Source: a virus (lineage: Duplodnaviria > Heunggongvirae > Uroviricota > Caudoviricetes). Taken from it: 17,757 bases of DNA. The position numbers were made by a program, and so were the translations under genes. The DNA lies in IMG/VR virus record IMGVR_UViG_2877285697_000007. The stretch is one strand, 5' to 3'. Numbering within the stretch: position 1 is the first letter of the stretch; every line of letters starts with the position of its first letter. This document shows positions 3,672 through 17,757 of the stretch, one piece after another. The notes beneath the pieces are model-generated. The model did no database searches. It had not been told where the DNA came from and saw only the letters and a program-made list of their open reading frames with translations.

Positions 3672-3702
3672 CCACAAAAAAGCCCGCCTGAACCGGCGGG
3701 CT
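3672..3702 (-). terminator. Intrinsic terminator downstream of lom
   Basis: Minus-strand stem AGCCCGCC / GGCGGGCT (3681-3688 / 3695-3702) with a 6-nt loop, followed on the minus strand by TTTTTTGTG. It sits between the lom stop (3729) and the stf start (3664). Confidence 0.6.
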
Positions 3703-3728: not shown

Positions 3729-4328
3729 TCAGAATTTATAACCAACACCCACGATGAACCCGTCAGTGCGCCAGTCACCACTGCCGGAGCCTTCATAAGC
3801 AATATCAATAGCCACGGATTCGGTCGGGTTAAACTGCACGCCAGCTCCCCACGCCAGAGACGTGTTGCTGTGGCGACCGTCATCACTTCCGGTCAGCACG
3901 TCGTGCGTTTTCCCCTTGTTGTCAGTTACGCGGAGATAATCCCCGGAGAAAGTCGACACACGGCTGTAAGCCACACCCGCCATCGCATACGCGCTGAACC
4001 ATTCATTCACGCGCACAGACGGCCCCGCCATCACGCTGAACCAGCGGTTACGAACGGAATCTTCATGCCAGCGGGTATCGCTGTAACGGGTAAGCTGGCG
4101 ATTCTTGTCTCCTGCATAGCTGAATGACGTCACCATCCCCAGTGTGTCCGTAAACTCATAACGGTATTTCACGTTAATCCCGTTCAGATCATCGCTGCCG
4201 GGAACGTTCGTCGAGGCATGAAGATACCCCGCGCTCAGCGTGGACTGATGTTCAGATGCCCATGCAGGCGCACCGGATACGGCCAGACAAATGGCTGCGG
4301 AAAAAATGGCGGCATAAAGTTTACGCAT
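3729..4328 (-). CDS. lom: Outer membrane protein Lom (Ail/Lom/PagC family), 199 aa
   Basis: Start [24 protein letters not shown] looks like a signal peptide. C-terminus [24 protein letters not shown] is identical to my recollection of lambda Lom. The track ORF 3729-4586 is an upstream in-frame extension that runs into the IS4 end; the ATG at 4326-4328 with GAGAGG upstream is the likely start. Confidence 0.9.
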
Positions 4329-4360
4329 AATTACCTCTCGCTTTTCTGCAATAAAAAAGG

Positions 4361-4374
4361 CACCATTTCTGGTG
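4361..4374. repeat. Target-site duplication, left copy (CACCATTTCTGGTG), flanking IS4
   Basis: The same 14-mer occurs at 5801-5814, immediately outside both IS4 ends. Confidence 0.8.
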
Positions 4375-5800
4375 TAATGCCAGTCAGTTAAGCAACTGAC
4401 TGGCTCTTTTTCGGGGCTGTGGGGTATTTCCAGGGCCTCTCCTTTACCACTCTCGGGAAGGCCCTTCCCCTTCTCGTCGGTAATTTCACAAGTTGTCCCA
4501 TACTTGCAAGATCGCGCATCAGCTCCGGTATACGTCCCGGTGAAGCGCCCTGCAATGTCATCAGCATTCTCATCACCATTCCGCATGATTCTGAGAAACT
4601 CAGTTGATTCGGCCAGTAACCTTTCAGATGTTCCGCCATTTTAATCATCTGATATCTCACCAGATTATAAGCCAGTAAGACACCCCACAGCTCTTGCTCC
4701 ACAAGCTCCGGCTTTTTACTTCTCAGCGTCAGCCTGCTCAGTTGCATCGTCTGTTTTATCTCCCTGTATCCCAGTTCGATTTCCCAGCGATGACTGTACA
4801 GATCCGCCATTTCTCCTCCGGGGAAGCGCATGGCGTCCGTCATCGACGTCAGCAGATGGCAGACTTTTCCTTTGCGCGTCACGGTCAGCAGGCGGGCTGT
4901 CACTTCATTTCCCAGTCCCGGCCACTTTTTTCGTGCCTGCGGGCTGGTTTTCAGCTTCACCAGATGATCGCCTTTACCCAGTTTTCTGAGCTCTTCATAT
5001 TGCGCTCCCTTTCTGAGAGGTATCATCCAGTGGCGGTGTTCTCCCGCCAGGCTCCAGGCATTTAACAGTCCCAGTGAGTAATAACCTTTATCCATTAACG
5101 TCAGAGTGTTATCGCCGGTTTGTTCTATAAGTTGCTCAGCAAGCTCATTTTCGCTGTTCTTCATCGTGCCGAAGGCTGCAGCCGTCAGCAGATGGCTGGT
5201 CAGTTCCATCTGGCAGACCATTTTGACCTGCGGGTAGAGCGCCGGGTTCCCGGCATGTGTCTGGCGGGGGAAGGCTGCATCGTTCTCTGGTGTATCCGGT
5301 GTGCGCCAGAACACACCATCGATGGCCAGCAGGGTCAGGCCGCACCAGTGCGGATGCGGCGTGGCGTTATGCCAGAGCTGCGCTGTTTTCGTGAACACGC
5401 GGCGGACAGCCTCACTTCCCAGGCGCTGGCGGGCCTGAATAACGGCACTGGGGGCAACGAAGGGGCGATTGCCCGGCAGCATGATGTCCAGGCGATTCAC
5501 AATCTGGTGAAGAGGTTCTTTACGCTCAAGCGCCATGCCAACAATACACCAGACCATCATTTCGAGGGGAAGACGGCGCTTGCGTAGCGTTACAGTACCT
5601 GATTCGGCAAGGCAACGAGAGATGAGTTCGGGGTCGAGGTAATCCCCCAGAGAAGTCAGTGGATTACGCAGAGAATCGTAACGGGATACCAGATCAAGAG
5701 TCTGTCCAATGTGCATAAAAAAATCCGGAAACAAGTGAGCGTTTCCGGATTCTTACACAGCCACTGGATCGGTCAACTGATCCTTAACTGATCGGCATTA
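4375..5800 (-). mobile_element. IS4, complete, 1426 bp
   Basis: Terminal imperfect inverted repeats TAATGCCAGTCAGTTAAG (4375-) and TAATGCCGATCAGTTAAG (revcomp, ending 5800), 16 of 18 matching. Encodes an IS4-type transposase. The length equals the known IS4 size. Confidence 0.9.
4388..5716 (-). CDS. insG: IS4 transposase (DDE, IS4 family), about 442 aa
   Basis: Sequence [40 protein letters not shown]... matches recalled IS4 InsG. ATG at 5714-5716; the track's 5734 start is an upstream in-frame extension. Confidence 0.9.
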
Positions 5801-5814
5801 CACCATTTCTGGTG
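5801..5814. repeat. Target-site duplication, right copy (CACCATTTCTGGTG), flanking IS4
   Basis: Identical to 4361-4374. Confidence 0.8.
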
Positions 5815-5837
5815 CCCTTATATGGGTTATAACAATT

Positions 5838-8800
5838 TCAACGAATACTGATGCCGGAAGCGGCTTTTTTGGTCACAATCACCGTACAGTCGGTGATATT
5901 ACCTGCCCGCTGATTGCCTTTATGGAAAACCTTAAACTCCAGAGTGACGCTTCCCCTGCCACTCGGCATATCAATAACCGCACTGTAGCTACCGGGAATG
6001 GCCCCTTTAGTTTCTCTGGATGCGATTAATACACCGTTTTTGCGAACTTCAAAACCATAACCCGTGTATCTTGTACCTCCCGGGTTATTACCACTTCCCG
6101 GATCGCTATACGCTATTCCGTTAAAGATAATGGGCGGAATAATGATTTGACGGTCAAAGTTATGATCATCGCTGATGGTGACTGTAACCGTCCCGTTTGG
6201 TGTTTCCGTATTACCCCACGTACCAGCCTGTTTCGGGAATGATTTGGATACAGCTTTAACGAAGTCACCTCTGACCTGAGTCGCCTCCAGCATGCCCTTA
6301 ATCGTACAGTTTTCATTTACCGTGACATTGTTGAGCGTCCCGGCGTTCGCATTCACACTGCCACTGATATCCGCATTTTTAGCGGTCAGCTTTCCGTCCG
6401 GAGTCAGGGAAAATGCCGGTGGATTTCCACCACTGGTAATGGTCGGGGCCGTCAGGCGCTTCAGGAACACGTCGTTCATAAATATCTGATTGCCCTGCGC
6501 CACAAACATCGGCGTTTCATTCCCGTTTGCCGGGTCAATAAACGCGATACGATTGGCGGCAACCAGAAACTGACTCAGTTTGCCTTCCTCCGTGTCCTCC
6601 ATGCTGAGGCCAATACCCGCGACATAATGTTTGCCGTCTTTGGTCTGCTCAATTTTGACAGCCCACATGGCATTCCACTTATCGTTGGCATCCTTCCACT
6701 CTTTCGAAAACTCATCCAGTCTGCTGGCGTTATCCTCCGTCAGGTCGACTTTTTCCAGCAACTCCTTGCCGAGATGAGATTCGGTTATCTTGCCTTTGAA
6801 AAAATCCAGGTAACCTTCCGCATCATCGCTCGCCCGACCGACAGCCTCCACGAATGCCGATTTGCCAACGGTGTTCACACTGCGGATATAAAAGTAATAA
6901 TCATGGCCCGGTTTGATATTGATACTGGCGGCTATCCAGTACAGCCCCGTGCCAAGATAGCGGGCTGCGGTTTCAACCTGCCTGATATCGGTAATCCGCG
7001 TTTCCGAGAACCAGAACTCAAACTGTACCGTCGGATCATAAACCGCAAGATGCGGCGTGGCAGTTATCTGAAAATAGCCTGGCGTCAGCTCAATCTGTGA
7101 CGGCGCTGCCGGTGCGGCAATCCGGAACGATACCGATGCCGGATCGCCCTGCTGTCCCCACGCATTTACCGCCCGGACTGTCAGCCTGTAGTTCCCCAGC
7201 GCCAGTTGCGTGAAGCGGTATGTGGTTTCCGCCGTCCGGGCCGTGCTGACCAGCGGCTCACTGCCGTCATCCGCTGCCACGGTCAGGCGAAGCAGGAAAC
7301 TCACGCCCTTCACCACCTTCGGCGTGTCCCAGCGCGCCAGTACCTGATATTCCCCGCTGTCTGCGGTGACTTCGGCAGTCAGGTGCTGCACCGCTGGCGG
7401 CGTGACACCATTCACCGTGCCGCTCTGGTCACCGTCAAAGTGCGCCCCGTTATCCACGATGGCTTCTTTTTCAGGCACATGCTGCACGGCGGTGATGGCA
7501 TACGTACCGTCGTCGTTCTCACGGATACTCACACAACGGAACAGGCGCTGGCGCAGCGTCGGCAGCTTCAACCCCCACACGCTGTATCCGGCAACGCCGT
7601 CAGGAACCCGGCTCACTTTCACCTTCACGCCGTCGGTGACGGACTGAACCTCCACGCTGACCGGATTGCCACTTCCGTCAACCAGGCTTATCAGCGTGGT
7701 ACCGGAGGATGGCAGCGTGATTTCACGGTCGAGCGTCAGCGTCCGGGTCTGGCTGTTTACCGCCAGCACGCGACCACCGATGCTGATACCGGCATAGTCA
7801 TCATCGCAGATTTCAATGACATCGCCCGGTACATGGCGAAGCCCTTCGGCACCCACGCTGAAGTCCACGGTCTGCGTCTCCAGCAGTTCCGTTTTAATCA
7901 GCCACAGCCCGGCGCGGTGTGCCTGCCCCCGGCTGGTACAGCCAAAGGCATCCATCTTCGTGACGTTACGACCGTAACGGGCAATGGCCTGCGTATCTTC
8001 AACAAGCTCTGTCGCCGTCTCCCAGCCGTTATCCGGGTCAATCCAGTTCACCTCAACGGCATTATGGCGGTCTTTCAGGGCGCTGAAGCTGTAGCGGAAC
8101 GGCGCGCCATCATCCGGCATCACCACATTACTGCGGTTATAGGTCCACACCTTATCCGACGGTCGGTCCTGCACGAACGTCAGCGTCTGCCCGTTCCATA
8201 CCGGCATACAGCGCATCGCCGAGCAGAAATCACTGAGCACATCCCACGCCTTGCGCTGTGTGGTCAGGTACGCATTACAGGTGATGCGCGGCTCCGTGCC
8301 GCCAAAGCCGTCCGGCACTGACTGGTCGCAGTACTGGCCGATGACATACAGCGCCCATTTATCCACATCCGCTGCACCAAGACGTTTCCCCATGCCGTAG
8401 CGCGGGTGGGTCAGCATATCCCACAGACACCAGGCCATGTTGTTGCTGTATGCCGGTTTTAACGTTCCGTCCCAGATACCGCTGTATTGCCGCGTCTGCG
8501 GGTTATAGTTCGACGGCACCTGCAGAATGCGCCCGCGCAGATGATAATTACGGCTCACCTGCTGGCTGCCGAACTGCTCCGAGTCCACCTGTACGCCGAC
8601 CAGTGCCGTGTTCGGGTAGCACTGTTTCACATCGATGATTTCGGTGTATGACGACCAGAGCGTTTTGTTCTGCAGCTGGTCTGTGGTGCTGTCCGGCGTC
8701 ATCCTGCGCATCCGGATATTGAACGGGCGCGGCGGCAGGTTACCCACCACCACCGATGCCAGATACTGTGAGGTGGTTTTGCCTTTAATGGTGATGTCTT

Positions 8801-9251
8801 TTTCCGTCACCCAGCCACCGTTACGCTGTATCTGAACCAGCAGGCGGACTTCCGACGGATTCCGGTCCCCCTTTGAGGTGGTTTCCACCAGTGCCTGCAC
8901 GCCGAAAGTAAAACGCAGACGGTCAATGTTTGCCGACCTGATGGTGCGGGTGATCGGCGTGTCATATTTCACTTCCGTACCCAGCACCGTCTCGGAGCCG
9001 GAGGATTCAAAACCCTCCGGCGGTGTCTGCTCCTGCTCACCGGCACGGAACACCACCGTGACGCCGGATATGTTGGTATTACCTTCACTGTCCAGCACCG
9101 GCGTACTGTTCAGCAGCACGCTTTTTAATCCATCCACCGGACCTTCAACCGGCCCTTCACTGATGGCATCGATCACACTCAGCAACTGCGTGGATTTGAG
9201 GTTGTCCTTCGCTTCGCGCGGGGTATGCCCCTTACTGCTGCCTTTACCCAT
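5838..9251 (-). CDS. J: Tail tip / host specificity protein J (central tail fiber), 1137 aa
   Basis: Starts [34 protein letters not shown]... and tracks lambda gpJ for most of its length. It lies 60 bp downstream of I, as in lambda. Confidence 0.92.
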
Positions 9252-10954: not shown

Positions 10955-11026
10955 TGAAGTGGCACACTGAATTTGGCCACCTGAACAGAGGTGATATGCT
11001 CACCTCAGAACAACACAGGTGCTCCA

Positions 11027-12195
<1,169 letters not shown>

Positions 12196-12289
12196 CCACT
12201 TCACAAATGTGCGCTGGCTATTACGGCTGTAATGGCGATTTATTGTCTTGCTATTGTTCTTATGGATCGCCTTTCTGACTGATTTCACA

Positions 12290-12318: not shown

Positions 12319-12493
12319 GGCTGCGGGTGCTTGAGGCTATCTGCCTCGGGCATGAACACCAACGGCAGATAGAGAAAAGCCCCAGTTAACATTACGCGTC
12401 CTGCAAGACGCTTAACATTAATCTGAGGCCAATTTCATGCTAGACACATGTAGGTTAGCCTCTTACGTGCCGAAAGGCAAGGAGAAGCAGGCT

Positions 12494-12649
12494 ATGAAGC
12501 AGCAAAAGGCGATGTTAATCGCCCTGATCGTCATCTGTTTAACCGTCATAGTGACGGCACTGGTAACGAGGAAAGACCTCTGCGAGGTACGAATCCGAAC
12601 CGGCCAGACGGAGGTCGCTGTCTTCACAGCTTACGAACCTGAGGAGTAA
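12494..12649 (+). CDS. hok: Hok/Gef-family type I toxin, 51 aa
   Basis: MKQQKAMLIALIVICLTVIVTALVTRKDLCEVRIRTGQTEVAVFTAYEPEE: one N-terminal transmembrane helix and the conserved DLCE motif; closest recalled paralogs are HokD/RelF and HokC/Gef. RBS AAGGAGAAG precedes the ATG. An in-frame ATG at 12437 gives a 70-aa mok-like extension. Confidence 0.85.
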   Translation: MKQQKAMLIALIVICLTVIVTALVTRKDLCEVRIRTGQTEVAVFTAYEPEE

Positions 12650-12865: not shown

Positions 12866-12949
12866 ATGATGAACATCGAAGAACTGCGTAAAATTTTTTG
12901 TGAAGATGGCCTCTATGCTGTGTGCGTTGAAAATGGAAATCTTGTTTGA
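12866..12949 (+). other. Small ORF (27 codons, MMNIEELRKIFCEDGLYAVCVENGNLV) apparently truncated by IS911
   Basis: Good RBS (AAGGA, 5-nt spacer). Its stop codon TGA is the first three bases of the IS911 copy B terminal repeat, so it is either a gene remnant or a chance ORF. Confidence 0.25.
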
Positions 12950-12954
12950 AGTGG

Positions 12955-14123
<1,169 letters not shown>

Positions 14124-14373
14124 TGGAGCACCTGTGTTGTTCTGAGGTGAGCATATCACCTCTGTTCAGGTGGCCAAATTCAGTGTGCCACTTCATTGAG
14201 AACCAGCACCACAACCTCCTGTATTGGACGTACACCAGTCCTGATGAATATGAGGCTGTCTCGTCAGTGATTCAATACAACTATTGGGTATAGTTTCTCT
14301 GATTTTTTCTGTGGAAATGGGGCTCAACCACTAGTCATTTAATACGCAAAGTCCGATACAAGCTAACCTTCTA

Positions 14374-14457: not shown

Positions 14458-15096
14458 TTAACCACAGATGATATTGAAACGTTCTCCGGAAATCTTGACC
14501 ATAATGTCAGACAGTTCGCTGACGGCATGGGCTTCAGATGATCCCAGAGCGTCAGGCTGAACAGCTATTACCGAAGCTCCACTTGCCAGCCCTGCTTTTA
14601 TACCCGCAGATGCATCCTCAAATACCACGCATTCACCAGGCTCAAGGCCCAAAGCCAAAGCTGCTTTGATGTAACCCTCGGGACTTGGTTTTCCCGTCAT
14701 TACATCTTCTGCACACACCATTACTATGGGTAAGGGGAGATTAGCCGCTTTCATCCTGTTTTCTGCAAGCATTCTGCCTGCAGAAGTGACAAGTGCCCAG
14801 CTATCCGGTGGCAGTTTTGATAAGAGTGCAGCGGCCCCTTTTACTTCAGTAACGCCTTCTGTCGTGTTGATTTCAACCTCTTCGAGTGAGGCCGCGATTT
14901 TATTGGTTTTCTCACCTGCACCAATAAAATGCGTCAGTGTATCAATCGTTTGCCGCCCGTGTGCGTAAGCAATCACAGCCTGAGTATCAAGACCGTATTC
15001 TGCACAAAAATCTCTCCAGACGCTTTCCACTACGGCTGTTGAATCAACCAGCGTACCGTCCATATCGAATAAAAAACCCTTAGCGTTGAATATCAT
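14458..15096 (-). CDS. HAD-superfamily phosphatase (subfamily IA, sugar-phosphatase / beta-phosphoglucomutase-like), about 212 aa
   Basis: Motif I FLFDMDGTLVDS, plus VTSA, TGKPSPEGY and VVFEDASAGIKAG; resembles E. coli YfbT/HxpB-type hexitol phosphatases from memory. Start is placed at the second ATG (15094-15096), which has AAGGA 6 nt upstream; the track start is 15102. Confidence 0.8.
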   Translation of the reverse strand: MIFNAKGFLFDMDGTLVDSTAVVESVWRDFCAEYGLDTQAVIAYAHGRQTIDTLTHFIGAGEKTNKIAASLEEVEINTTEGVTEVKGAAALLSKLPPDSWALVTSAGRMLAENRMKAANLPLPIVMVCAEDVMTGKPSPEGYIKAALALGLEPGECVVFEDASAGIKAGLASGASVIAVQPDALGSSEAHAVSELSDIMVKISGERFNIICG

Positions 15097-15125
15097 TGCC
15101 ATTCCTTAATGGTTGCAGAAGAAAG

Positions 15126-15764
15126 TTAATCAAACCATGTTTTTTCATCACCTTTCGCTACTCTCAGGCTGACAGCAATCTGCTCAGGCACAATTCTTGA
15201 AAGCGACAATTCAGGCAGGTCGTTGACATCAAAAAAATCAGCATCGAGTGACTCATGGCTGATTGACAGGCTGCCACCTACTTCTTCACAGAGAAAAATC
15301 AGCTTGTAAACATGCCAGGGTAAAGGCGGATGGCCGTGAAGATTACGATCCCAAACTCCCAATAGTTTAGTCACTCTGACTTTTAATCCGGTTTCTTCTT
15401 CGACCTCTCGACGCACAGCTTCAGAAGGTGTATCTCCAACATCTGCCCATCCGCCAGGAAGACTCCATAATCCATCTGCAGCCTCTTTCACCATCAGAAT
15501 ACGATTATTACGCAGGATAAACGCACGCACATCTGTTTTGGGCGTCGCGTAACCCGTTTCCGATACATGAAACAAATCATTGCGGCTAATATCAAACTGC
15601 GAACTCAGCAGTCCAGCGGCAATTTCACGCAAGGCTTCATAGCGTTCCTTGTCAAAGACGTCTTTTGAATAGGTCAGGCCTGACTGCGCGAGGGCCTTTA
15701 GTCTCTGGGCAACAAAAATAAGCTTTTCTTGGGTCAACACTTCAGACATGTTTTTCATCTTCAT
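15126..15764 (-). CDS. NUDIX hydrolase with an N-terminal extension, ADP-ribose pyrophosphatase-like, 212 aa
   Basis: Nudix-box-like segment GGWADVGDTPSEAVRREVEEETGL (REVEEETGL fits REUxEExGU) preceded by a ~70-aa N-terminal domain. Start is ambiguous among three Met codons (MKMKNM). Stop is 23 bp upstream of the HAD start, suggesting an operon. Confidence 0.8.
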   Translation of the reverse strand: MKMKNMSEVLTQEKLIFVAQRLKALAQSGLTYSKDVFDKERYEALREIAAGLLSSQFDISRNDLFHVSETGYATPKTDVRAFILRNNRILMVKEAADGLWSLPGGWADVGDTPSEAVRREVEEETGLKVRVTKLLGVWDRNLHGHPPLPWHVYKLIFLCEEVGGSLSISHESLDADFFDVNDLPELSLSRIVPEQIAVSLRVAKGDEKTWFD

Positions 15765-15839
15765 TTATGTATTCAGAGTTCCTGTTAAGGATACTGCTCA
15801 ATTCAATGAAGAATAACAAATGCATCTGGCACCTGCTAT

Positions 15840-15863
15840 GTCCGCTTCTGGCACAAAGCGGAC
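15840..15863. repeat. Palindromic hairpin GTCCGCTT / AAGCGGAC with an 8-nt loop, between the 133-aa gene and the NUDIX gene
   Basis: Same stem sequence as the hairpin at 14374-14397; the two bracket the NUDIX-HAD pair. Confidence 0.5.
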
Positions 15864-15960
15864 AACCACGCCAGATCTACCCTGTGCCATGAAAAATGAG
15901 AATGTCAATTCACTCCTGAACTAATGCTTTTTAATCTAGTAACGTCTAAAATACCTAACA

Positions 15961-16362
15961 TTATCCCTGATAAAATGCCAGTATGCGCTGCATAACTTCA
16001 CTCATCCGGCACTCGCGACAGATTATGTTTAGGCGACTGTCGTAGCGACGTATTTCTCCATCAGGTAACGACCAGATAAGGTCCGGATCAACCACAGCTG
16101 TTTTCTTCACCTTTGCCCTCGATAGTTTTTTGCGGGCGTTTTGCCAGTCCTTACGCGCCTGTTCAGACGGGAATAACCCGTAGCCGGAGTTGTATACATC
16201 GCCACTGGCTACCAGCTCTCTGGCAAGAACGCTCATCAGATATCTAGTCGCACCTGTTTTAGCTTCCAGTTGCCGTAACGTCTCACGACCGCTCTGGCGC
16301 ACGAGTTCCACCACCTGCCCTTTAATTTTTTCCCGCTCTTCTTGTGTAAAAACTTTTGCCAC
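15961..16362 (-). CDS. Hypothetical small basic protein, 133 aa, with a possible helix-turn-helix (TLRQLEAKTGATRYLMSVLAREL)
   Basis: ORF with a GTG start at 16360-16362 preceded by GGGGGA. I recognise no family; the HTH assignment is by eye only. Confidence 0.5.
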   Translation of the reverse strand: MAKVFTQEEREKIKGQVVELVRQSGRETLRQLEAKTGATRYLMSVLARELVASGDVYNSGYGLFPSEQARKDWQNARKKLSRAKVKKTAVVDPDLIWSLPDGEIRRYDSRLNIICRECRMSEVMQRILAFYQG

Positions 16363-16402
16363 AAGTCCCCCTTAAAATTACCTCATGACCTGAAATCAAA
16401 AC

Positions 16403-16927
16403 TTATCCTCTGAAACCAGGCGGAATTTCTGTATCCGGTTCAGAAATATGATTCACACAACGCTGTACAGGTGAACGTCCCAGGCGGATGACCAGTTCGT
16501 CCCATTTTTCGCGGAGTTTTGACGGGCTCATGATGTTTTTTACCCAGAATGGATCCCGCTGTACCCGACCAAACATTTCGCAAATTTGTCTGTGGCTTCT
16601 GCCATCCAGCATCCGCATTGTGCGCACGTCATTGGCCCAGGCTGTCCAGTTAGGCTCTTTTGGTCGCATGATCTCTCCATCGTCGCTGGCAGCCTGTTCG
16701 TAAAGGTTCACGATCCGCCCCCAAATCCACTGCGCACACGCCAAATCCTCCCTGCTACCCCACTGGCGTTTTTTCACACTAAACACAACCGCGTCGGGGT
16801 TCCGGGTTAAAAAATCCTGTTCAGTCGTCTGCGGGTCCGGTTGCGAAGCTTCCGGACGAAAAGTGTTTTTATTCTCTGTAGTAATCTCTGTTGTATGAGG
16901 TGTACTGGCAATAGCGGACACTACCAT
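16403..16927 (-). CDS. DnaT-C-terminal-domain-like protein (prophage / plasmid replication-associated), 174-aa ORF
   Basis: C-terminus ...NHISEPDTEIPPGFRG closely resembles the C-terminus of E. coli primosomal protein DnaT as I recall it (...SEPDSQIPPGFRG). The first ~11 codons overlap the presumed IS600 terminal repeat, so the native 5' end is uncertain. Confidence 0.5.
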   Translation of the reverse strand: MVVSAIASTPHTTEITTENKNTFRPEASQPDPQTTEQDFLTRNPDAVVFSVKKRQWGSREDLACAQWIWGRIVNLYEQAASDDGEIMRPKEPNWTAWANDVRTMRMLDGRSHRQICEMFGRVQRDPFWVKNIMSPSKLREKWDELVIRLGRSPVQRCVNHISEPDTEIPPGFRG

Positions 16928-17757
16928 TTGTTCTTTTTTTAAGCAGCCATCTGATGATATTTTTCCCTGAAGGCTGCCGGGGAGATATTCCCCAGACGAG
17001 AGTGACGACGCTGACGATTGTAGAAAATCTCAATGTATTCCCGTATTACTGAGATGGCTTCATCCCGGTTATTAAAACGATAGTGGCTCAGGCTCTCATT
17101 TTTCAGCGTTCCCCAGAAGCTTTCCATCGGAGCGTTGTCGTAACAGTTACCTTTACGCGACATTGATGTTTTCAGACCAGACTGCTCCTGTATGACCCGG
17201 TAATCGTATGCGCAGTACTGTGAACCTCGATCAGAGTGGTGGATTAGCCCGGCAGGTGGGCGCTGGCTCCTGAGCGCCATAAACAGGGCTTTACCTGTCA
17301 GCTCTTTTGTCATGCGCTCTCCCATGGCGTAGCCGACAATTTCGCACGTATAAACATCTTTGATGCCAGCGAGGTACAACCATCCCTCCTGTGTGGCAAC
17401 ATACGTCAGGTCCGCCACCCAGACCTGATTTGGTGCTGTAGGAGCGAACGTCTGGTTCAGCAGATTTGGCGCAACTGGCAGATTGTGGTTCGGGTTCGTA
17501 GTCGCTCTGAACTTGCGTTTCTGCTTACAGCGTAGCCTTAGCTCCTTACGAAGACGTGCCAGTCGGTCACGACCAACGATGATGCCATTCTCTGCCAGCT
17601 CCGTCTGGAGCCGCCGGGTTCCATATGTTTCGCGAGTGCGGATATGTGCCACCTTAATCTCCAGTTTTAGCCGCTCATCACTTTGTTTTCTGTCTGAGGG
17701 TTCATGCTGTACCCAGTTGTAATAACCGCTCCTGGATACACCAAATACCTGACACAT
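16895..17757 (-). mobile_element. IS3-family element, IS600-like, partial (continues beyond the window end)
   Basis: Terminal sequence TGAGGTGTACTGGCAATAGCGGACAC resembles IS3-family inverted repeats (compare IS3 CAATAGTGGACAC). Encodes an IS600-like OrfB. The inner boundary is approximate. Confidence 0.65.
16939..17757 (-). CDS. IS3-family transposase OrfB (IS600-like), 5' end outside the window
   Basis: MCQVFGVSRSGYYNWVQ... with a DDE/rve core (VWVADLTYV, HHSDRGSQYCA, CYDNAPMESFW). The ORF reaches the window edge; orfA and the frameshift site are not in the window. Confidence 0.85.
   Translation of the reverse strand: MCQVFGVSRSGYYNWVQHEPSDRKQSDERLKLEIKVAHIRTRETYGTRRLQTELAENGIIVGRDRLARLRKELRLRCKQKRKFRATTNPNHNLPVAPNLLNQTFAPTAPNQVWVADLTYVATQEGWLYLAGIKDVYTCEIVGYAMGERMTKELTGKALFMALRSQRPPAGLIHHSDRGSQYCAYDYRVIQEQSGLKTSMSRKGNCYDNAPMESFWGTLKNESLSHYRFNNRDEAISVIREYIEIFYNRQRRHSRLGNISPAAFREKYHQMAA

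Follow-up and report, generated by a model that had tools for sequence, protein, structure and literature searches.

An intact IS4 with a 14-bp target duplication in the spacer between J and lom of a lambda-like prophage remnant

The window examined here (the whole stretch of DNA that was analysed, 17,757 nt) carries genes J and lom of a lambda-like prophage on its minus strand, and an insertion sequence occupies the spacer between them. The stop codon of J lies at 5838-5840 and the start codon of lom (ATG) at 4326-4328, both on the minus strand. The two genes, the element and its borders are the following:

5838 to 9251, minus strand: gene J, tail tip/host specificity protein, 1137 aa (Pfam matches of the product and RefSeq annotation of homologues)
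5801 to 5814, no strand: target-site duplication, J-side copy CACCATTTCTGGTG (repeat search and alignment to the empty site)
4375 to 5800, minus strand (reading strand of the transposase): complete IS4 (identity to annotated copies and to the K-12 copy)
5783 to 5800, no strand: terminal inverted repeat on the side of the transposase start (imperfect 18-bp pair with 4375-4392)
4388 to 5716, minus strand: intact IS4 transposase of the InsG type, 442 aa, with its ATG at 5716 and its stop at 4388 (Pfam and YREK motif)
4375 to 4392, no strand: terminal inverted repeat on the side away from the transposase start (16/18 bases match the reverse complement of 5783-5800)
4361 to 4374, no strand: target-site duplication, lom-side copy CACCATTTCTGGTG (single copy in uninterrupted junctions)
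3729 to 4328, minus strand: lom, Ail/Lom outer membrane protein, 199 aa (Pfam Ail_Lom, 1.2e-119)

The identity and the borders of the element are established by comparison with known copies. The segment 4375-5800 (1426 bp) presents 99.9% full-length identity to annotated E. coli IS4 copies and differs from the curated IS4 of K-12 MG1655 (mobile_genetic_element, NC_000913.3, 4502090-4503515) by 8 substitutions and 0 indels, corresponding to 99.4% nucleotide identity. Complete E. coli genomes alone contain 5500 places that match the element. Its termini read TAATGCC...GGCATTA, its first and last 30 bases are those of K-12 IS4, and the length is identical. The element thus presents the attributes that define IS4 itself, namely a length of about 1426 bp with these termini, near-identity to the reference and 18-bp imperfect terminal inverted repeats. 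The transposase matches the Pfam families Nterm_IS4 (3e-33) and DDE_Tnp_1 (8e-32), carries the YREK motif as Y307-R310-E314-K321 (residues 307-321) and differs from K-12 InsG by 5 aa. A single ORF with a DDE domain, recognised here at the level of the Pfam domain, together with the signature Y(2)R(3)E(6)K, places it in the IS4 subgroup of the IS4 family (PMC2266710). The first-pass annotation of this DNA had described a complete 1426-bp IS4 with these borders, lying between the J stop (5838) and the lom start (4328) and carrying its transposase on the strand of the late genes; the full-length matches, the K-12 termini and the ORF positions, all on the minus strand, bear out this description. 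The window copy is intact and ordinary, the element is a textbook one, and the insertion is an event of an ordinary, already-known kind. It shares with the K-12 copy (insG) the 1426-bp length, the termini, the 442-aa transposase and a long target duplication. In contrast, the K-12 copy lies between yjgZ and nanX at a poorly palindromic site with a 12-bp duplication (ATCTTGGTTCTG), whereas the window copy lies in a terminator hairpin and is flanked by 14 bp.

The perfect direct repeat CACCATTTCTGGTG that flanks IS4 occurs exactly twice in the window (4361-4374 and 5801-5814) and none was expected in 200 shuffles, so that the repeat search agrees with the perfect 14-bp repeat that had been proposed. 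The empty site was reconstructed by deleting IS4 and one copy of the repeat, which yields a 171-bp junction, and an 800-bp version was also searched. Rejoining of the flanks into a continuous J-lom spacer had been put forward as the refuting test for the insertion, and the 171-bp junction was indeed found exactly (171/171) in the uninterrupted prophages of E. coli 55989 and L73, with 100% identity in phages mEp460_ev081 and phi458 and 99.4% identity in phage 434. The 800-bp reconstruction was contiguous with up to 99.8% identity and was covered over at least 80% of its length in 1988 E. coli genomes. In an alignment of the window with E. coli 55989, the parts on either side of IS4 share exactly 14 bp of the subject sequence, which establishes the empty site and the duplication. 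The J-terminator-lom junctions of phages 434, mEp460_ev081 and phi458 and of the 55989 prophage at ydfJ carry no IS at this position, and there J, L, M, H and the genes upstream of them are all intact and adjacent. In these lambdoid junctions and in the window alike, lom lies between two terminators.

None of 5426 complete E. coli genomes carried IS4 at the J-lom site, and at most 57% of the whole window was covered in any of them. The exact 29-nt junction probe GGCACCATTTCTGGTGTAATGCCAGTCAG had no match in species-representative genome contigs or in metagenome contigs. An exact look-up of the J protein led to two independent complete chromosomes, CP026827.1 and CP119450.1, which share 11.4 kb with the window at 100% identity, the IS4 insertion included. 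It also led to a draft contig whose breakpoints coincide exactly with the borders of IS4 and IS600. This distribution indicates that the insertion is real and lineage-specific. The combination of IS600 with IS4 and the lack of the insertion in E. coli suggest that the background may be an IS-rich genome of the Shigella type. One could imagine that the structure is an assembly artefact, or that it arose by recombination between two IS4 copies rather than by simple insertion. We found no point in support of such a scenario and give it virtually no credence: joining the flanks restores a known junction exactly, the duplication is perfect, and the structure is identical in both chromosomes.

The length of the duplication deserves closer scrutiny. 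Klaer et al. 1981 reportedly described IS4 duplications of 11-13 bp. For the IS4 subgroup, a target duplication of 10-13 bp is tabulated (PMC2266710, Table 1); this range is descriptive rather than defining, and the 14 bp of the window copy lie 1 bp above it. It had been suggested that one or two of the 14 bases might be coincidental, in which case the true duplication would be 12-13 bp and the outer C and/or G would be coincidental or would belong to the IS. Indeed, the base before TAATG is G in all sampled true IS4 sites and the base after CATTA is C in most of them, such that those sites by themselves do not tell whether the outer bases come from the target or from the IS. Other copies make this reading very improbable, however. 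The K-12 copy, with curated borders TAATG...CATTA, is followed by A after CATTA, and relatives that are 80% identical present T or C before TAATG with perfect repeats up to the IS end. Because the ends annotated in K-12 are TAATG and CATTA, the bases adjoining both ends are derived from the target and all 14 are duplicated, as the exact 14-bp overlap of the two halves on the empty site likewise indicates. The symmetry of the IS ends further indicates that the outer C and G reflect target preference. The 14-bp duplication is therefore genuine, and its sole novelty is the one base by which it exceeds the published IS4 range.

The nature of the target itself had gone unmentioned in the first-pass annotation. 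On the minus strand, the target reads GGCACCAGAAATGGTGCC followed by TTTTTTATT. The empty site on this strand consists of TGA, 23 nt, GGCACCA-GAAA-TGGTGCC and TTTTTTATT, and the lom ATG begins about 20 nt past the U-tract. The intact hairpin after J has a predicted stability of -15.6 kcal/mol (z -3.65) and is followed by U6, and the curated record of phage 434 (OL657226.1) places a 'terminator' feature on the identical 27 bp. A G+C-rich hairpin with a U-tract directly behind it, 3' of J, is by sequence an intrinsic (Rho-independent) terminator, and we take IS4 to have inserted into this predicted terminator. The following hairpins are found around lom and at the two sides of the element:

5801 to 5822, minus strand: remnant of the split terminator on the J side, a 5-bp hairpin without U-tract (folding)
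4350 to 4374, minus strand: remnant of the split terminator on the lom side, a 5-bp hairpin CACCA/TGGTG followed by CC and U6 (terminator scan and folding)
3681 to 3702, minus strand: terminator-like hairpin after lom (terminator scan; the equivalent is annotated as 'terminator' in phage 434)

The lom-side remnant has a predicted stability of -6.4 kcal/mol relative to -15.6 kcal/mol for the intact hairpin, and it still passes a simple terminator scan. As a separate observation, lom, with a hairpin resembling an intrinsic terminator on either side, is laid out like an inserted accessory gene ('moron').

Taken together, these data make it very probable that a standard IS4 inserted into the intrinsic terminator hairpin after J of a lambda-like prophage, and that this hairpin is a normal target of the element. 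IS4 is a DDE cut-and-paste transposon of the IS4 family, and the insertion would have proceeded through two strand-transfer cuts at the base of the stem, GG/CACCA-TTTC-TGGTG/CC (slashes mark the cuts), 14 bp apart. Gap repair would then have duplicated the upper stem and the loop. The insertion splits the 7-bp G+C-rich stem into two 5-bp hairpins, of which the one on the J side has lost its U-tract and the one on the lom side keeps it but is much weaker. The element also brings predicted signals of its own in the direction from J to lom, namely a hairpin with U7 before the transposase gene and a candidate transposase promoter. Finally, larger target hairpins appear to go with longer duplications, within the range of 11-14 bp.

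We surveyed the targets of other copies, taking left ends of the IS4 type in species-representative genomes together with additional copies from E. coli, which yielded 31 distinct perfect-repeat sites and 7 E. coli sites. Most of these 38 sites present the order A-run, stem, stem, T-run, with duplications of 11-14 bp. Across the 31 distinct perfect-repeat sites, the arms take the form AAAAA-CGG/.../CCG-TTTTT, with a left arm that is A-rich and then CGG and a right arm that is CCG and then T-rich. At least 6 of 8 arm positions were complementary in 19 of the 31 sites, relative to 0.5% of random positions from the same loci. These arms correspond to the conserved left and right target arms of the IS4 subgroup (PMC2266710). 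In the window, AAAAAAGG on the left agrees with the survey consensus AAAAACGG; on the right, CCCTTATA agrees with the consensus CCGTTTTT only partially, at 5/8 positions, and 5/8 of the arm positions are complementary.

Many IS4 copies elsewhere share 20-30 bp with the window beyond both IS ends, including copies after adhE and between zapB and rraA, for example AAAAAAGG[CACCTTGCGGTG]CCTTTTTT. Other copies were found just after adhE, rpoD, mukB, baeR and zapB, and the seven additional E. coli sites are located downstream of rpoD, mukB or baeR or within other genes. The sites in chromosomal terminators (adhE, zapB-rraA, rpoD and mukB, in other E. coli strains) resemble that of the window in their succession of A-run, G+C stem, loop, stem and T-run and in being cut near the base of the stem, but their hairpins are 2-4 bp smaller and their duplications 12-13 bp long. 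The closest parallel is the zapB-rraA site, which shares AAAAAAGG/CACC...GGTG/CC with the window: the relative cut positions are the same (AAAAAAGG/C...G/CC), and the difference between the two sites amounts to 2 bp in the hairpin and 2 bp in the duplication. E. coli RM10740 (NZ_CP043821.1) has an IS4 of the same orientation in the tail genes of a related prophage; that copy lies within the coding sequence of J, which it splits with a 13-bp duplication, whereas the insertion in the window is in the spacer.

Among true IS4 copies (at least 98% identical; 19 distinct sites), duplications of 11 bp were found at 3 sites, 12 bp at 9, 13 bp at 6 and 14 bp at 1, the window. Among relatives that are 80-90% identical (17 distinct sites), the corresponding numbers were 3, 8, 4 and 2, and the two other 14-bp cases both belong to an 80%-identical IS4 relative in Rahnella. 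The length of the duplication correlated moderately, and in a small sample, with the spacing between the A-run and the T-run (Spearman 0.56, p = 0.003, n = 25). Mayaux et al. 1984 reportedly found IS4 inserted in the attenuator of pheST, at a target of the pattern AAA-N20-TTT. The preference of IS4 for short, terminator-like palindromes between an A-run and a T-run is already on record for the IS4 subgroup (PMC2266710). A broader proposal can only be offered tentatively, as a possibility that we rate slightly below even: IS4 and its relatives in Enterobacterales may specialise in terminator hairpins, with the transposase dimer reading two flexibly spaced half-sites (A-run plus stem base and its mirror image), such that the hairpin rather than the enzyme sets the 11-14 bp and the window copy marks the upper limit for true IS4. 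If this were true, each insertion would leave a half-terminator on either side, shielding the IS and its neighbours from each other's transcription.

Two further observations were made in the course of the survey. The relative of IS4 with about 80% identity (1425 bp) is present in many copies in Rahnella (sp. PCH160, loci L014 and L106), Kosakonia, Budvicia, Rosenbergiella and other Enterobacterales, where it likewise occupies terminator-like targets with 11-14 bp duplications (loci L008-L127). In E. coli VL40 (locus L136, NZ_CM177011.1, 1857871-1861335), IS4 copies are nested or rearranged after mukB, one interrupting another, and this locus presents no simple direct repeat.

The IS4 insertion is not the only one in this prophage. 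Two 100% identical 1249-bp elements of the IS600 type (IS3 family) lie in inverted orientation at 10955-12203 and 12947-14195, about 5 kb upstream of the IS4 site. This pair truncates the tail gene L and replaces M, H and all upstream late genes. The lambdoid late operon order Z-U-V-G-T-H-M-L-K-I-J upstream of lom is therefore not preserved, and L is represented by Pfam profile positions 82-206 only. In contrast, the intact relative in E. coli 55989 retains the expected order L, M, H, T, G, V and U. The block J-lom-stf-tfa is thus a prophage remnant whose late operon is beheaded at L. Neither IS600 copy is flanked by a 3-bp direct repeat of its own; under a model of inversion between the copies, one pair of 3-bp flanks fits (CAA and the reverse complement of TTG) and the other does not.

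Any transcriptional consequence of the IS4 insertion would depend on predicted signals, of which we identified three within the element:

5749 to 5776, minus strand: promoter-like site upstream of the transposase gene, TTGACC, 16 nt, AAGAAT, with an upstream TG (consensus scan only)
5717 to 5754, minus strand: 15-bp hairpin followed by U7, directly 5' of the transposase ATG (inverted repeat and folding)
4379 to 4404, no strand: 11-bp perfect palindrome at the distal IS4 end, terminator-like on the plus strand (inverted-repeat and terminator scans)

The consensus scan yielded 1 promoter-like site where 2.1 would be expected by chance. The leader hairpin has a predicted stability of -24.4 kcal/mol (z -4.7) with its left arm and of -0.2 kcal/mol without it, and this left arm overlaps the -10 element of the promoter-like site at 5776-5749. 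As a result, the hairpin would form only in transcripts entering from outside, on the J side, and not in those started at the element's own promoter. This suggests that the hairpin probably shields the transposase gene from external transcription, and it would be polar for transcription that is not antiterminated. No outward or hybrid promoter was detected by the promoter scan at the lom-side end of IS4.

The insertion had been proposed to uncouple lom, stf and tfa from read-through of the late operon, with IS4 acting as a polar block. Several signals encountered in the direction from J to lom would favor such an effect: the strong hairpin with U7 within IS4, 1.4 kb of foreign sequence, the 11-bp palindrome of the distal IS end and the remaining hairpin with U6. 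We nevertheless consider it unlikely. The native site already reads as an intrinsic terminator, which suggests that lom was insulated from non-antiterminated transcription before the insertion and that read-through at that stage depended on antitermination. Late transcription of the lambda type is antiterminated by Q, and Q-modified polymerase reads through such terminators and would ignore the signals in IS4 as well. Moreover, L is truncated by IS600 at 10955, and M, H and all upstream genes are not adjacent, such that no late operon is left from which to be uncoupled; a second terminator already separates lom from stf. Alternatively, the insertion might turn lom on if transcripts from the transposase promoter left IS4 and entered lom past the weakened terminator. 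The transposase gene and lom are co-oriented downstream of the promoter-like site, the lom-side hairpin falls from -15.6 to -6.4 kcal/mol in predicted stability, and the scan found no sigma-70-like site between the terminator and lom. However, the promoter is a consensus match at a frequency below chance expectation, and the residual lom-side hairpin with U6 would still be scored as a terminator; transposase promoters of insertion sequences are generally weak. Activation of lom by this route appears quite improbable.

The main value of these results lies in annotation: they locate an IS4 and its ends within a decayed prophage and indicate that the J-lom spacer holds a terminator recognised by IS4. 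The 14-bp case extends the documented IS4 range by one base and, together with the survey, hints that the geometry of the target hairpin governs how many bases are duplicated. For lom, stf and tfa, which here are part of a prophage remnant, the analysis adds nothing new.

Several other features of the window were recorded. Between the two IS600 copies, the segment 12204-12946 (743 bp) contains a hok/gef toxin ORF in a layout that resembles a composite transposon, and a full-length sok antitoxin RNA (Rfam RF01794, 115 bits) lies at 12325-12499 on the plus strand. Beyond the IS600 pair, 14458-17757 encodes a HAD hydrolase, a NUDIX hydrolase and a DUF977 protein, as well as a 174-aa ORF that had no Pfam match. 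A third IS3-family integrase-core ORF (16939-17757) is cut by the end of the window. The tail fibre assembly gene tfa (120-701) contains a full-length match to Rfam IS009 (RF02111, 226 bits) at 160-358 on the minus strand; IS009 is a family of sRNA candidates and not an insertion sequence. Finally, the side tail fibre gene stf contains a tandem 132-bp repeat at 1908-2171, with 2 copies that are 74% identical, which matches the Phage_fiber_2 repeat region.
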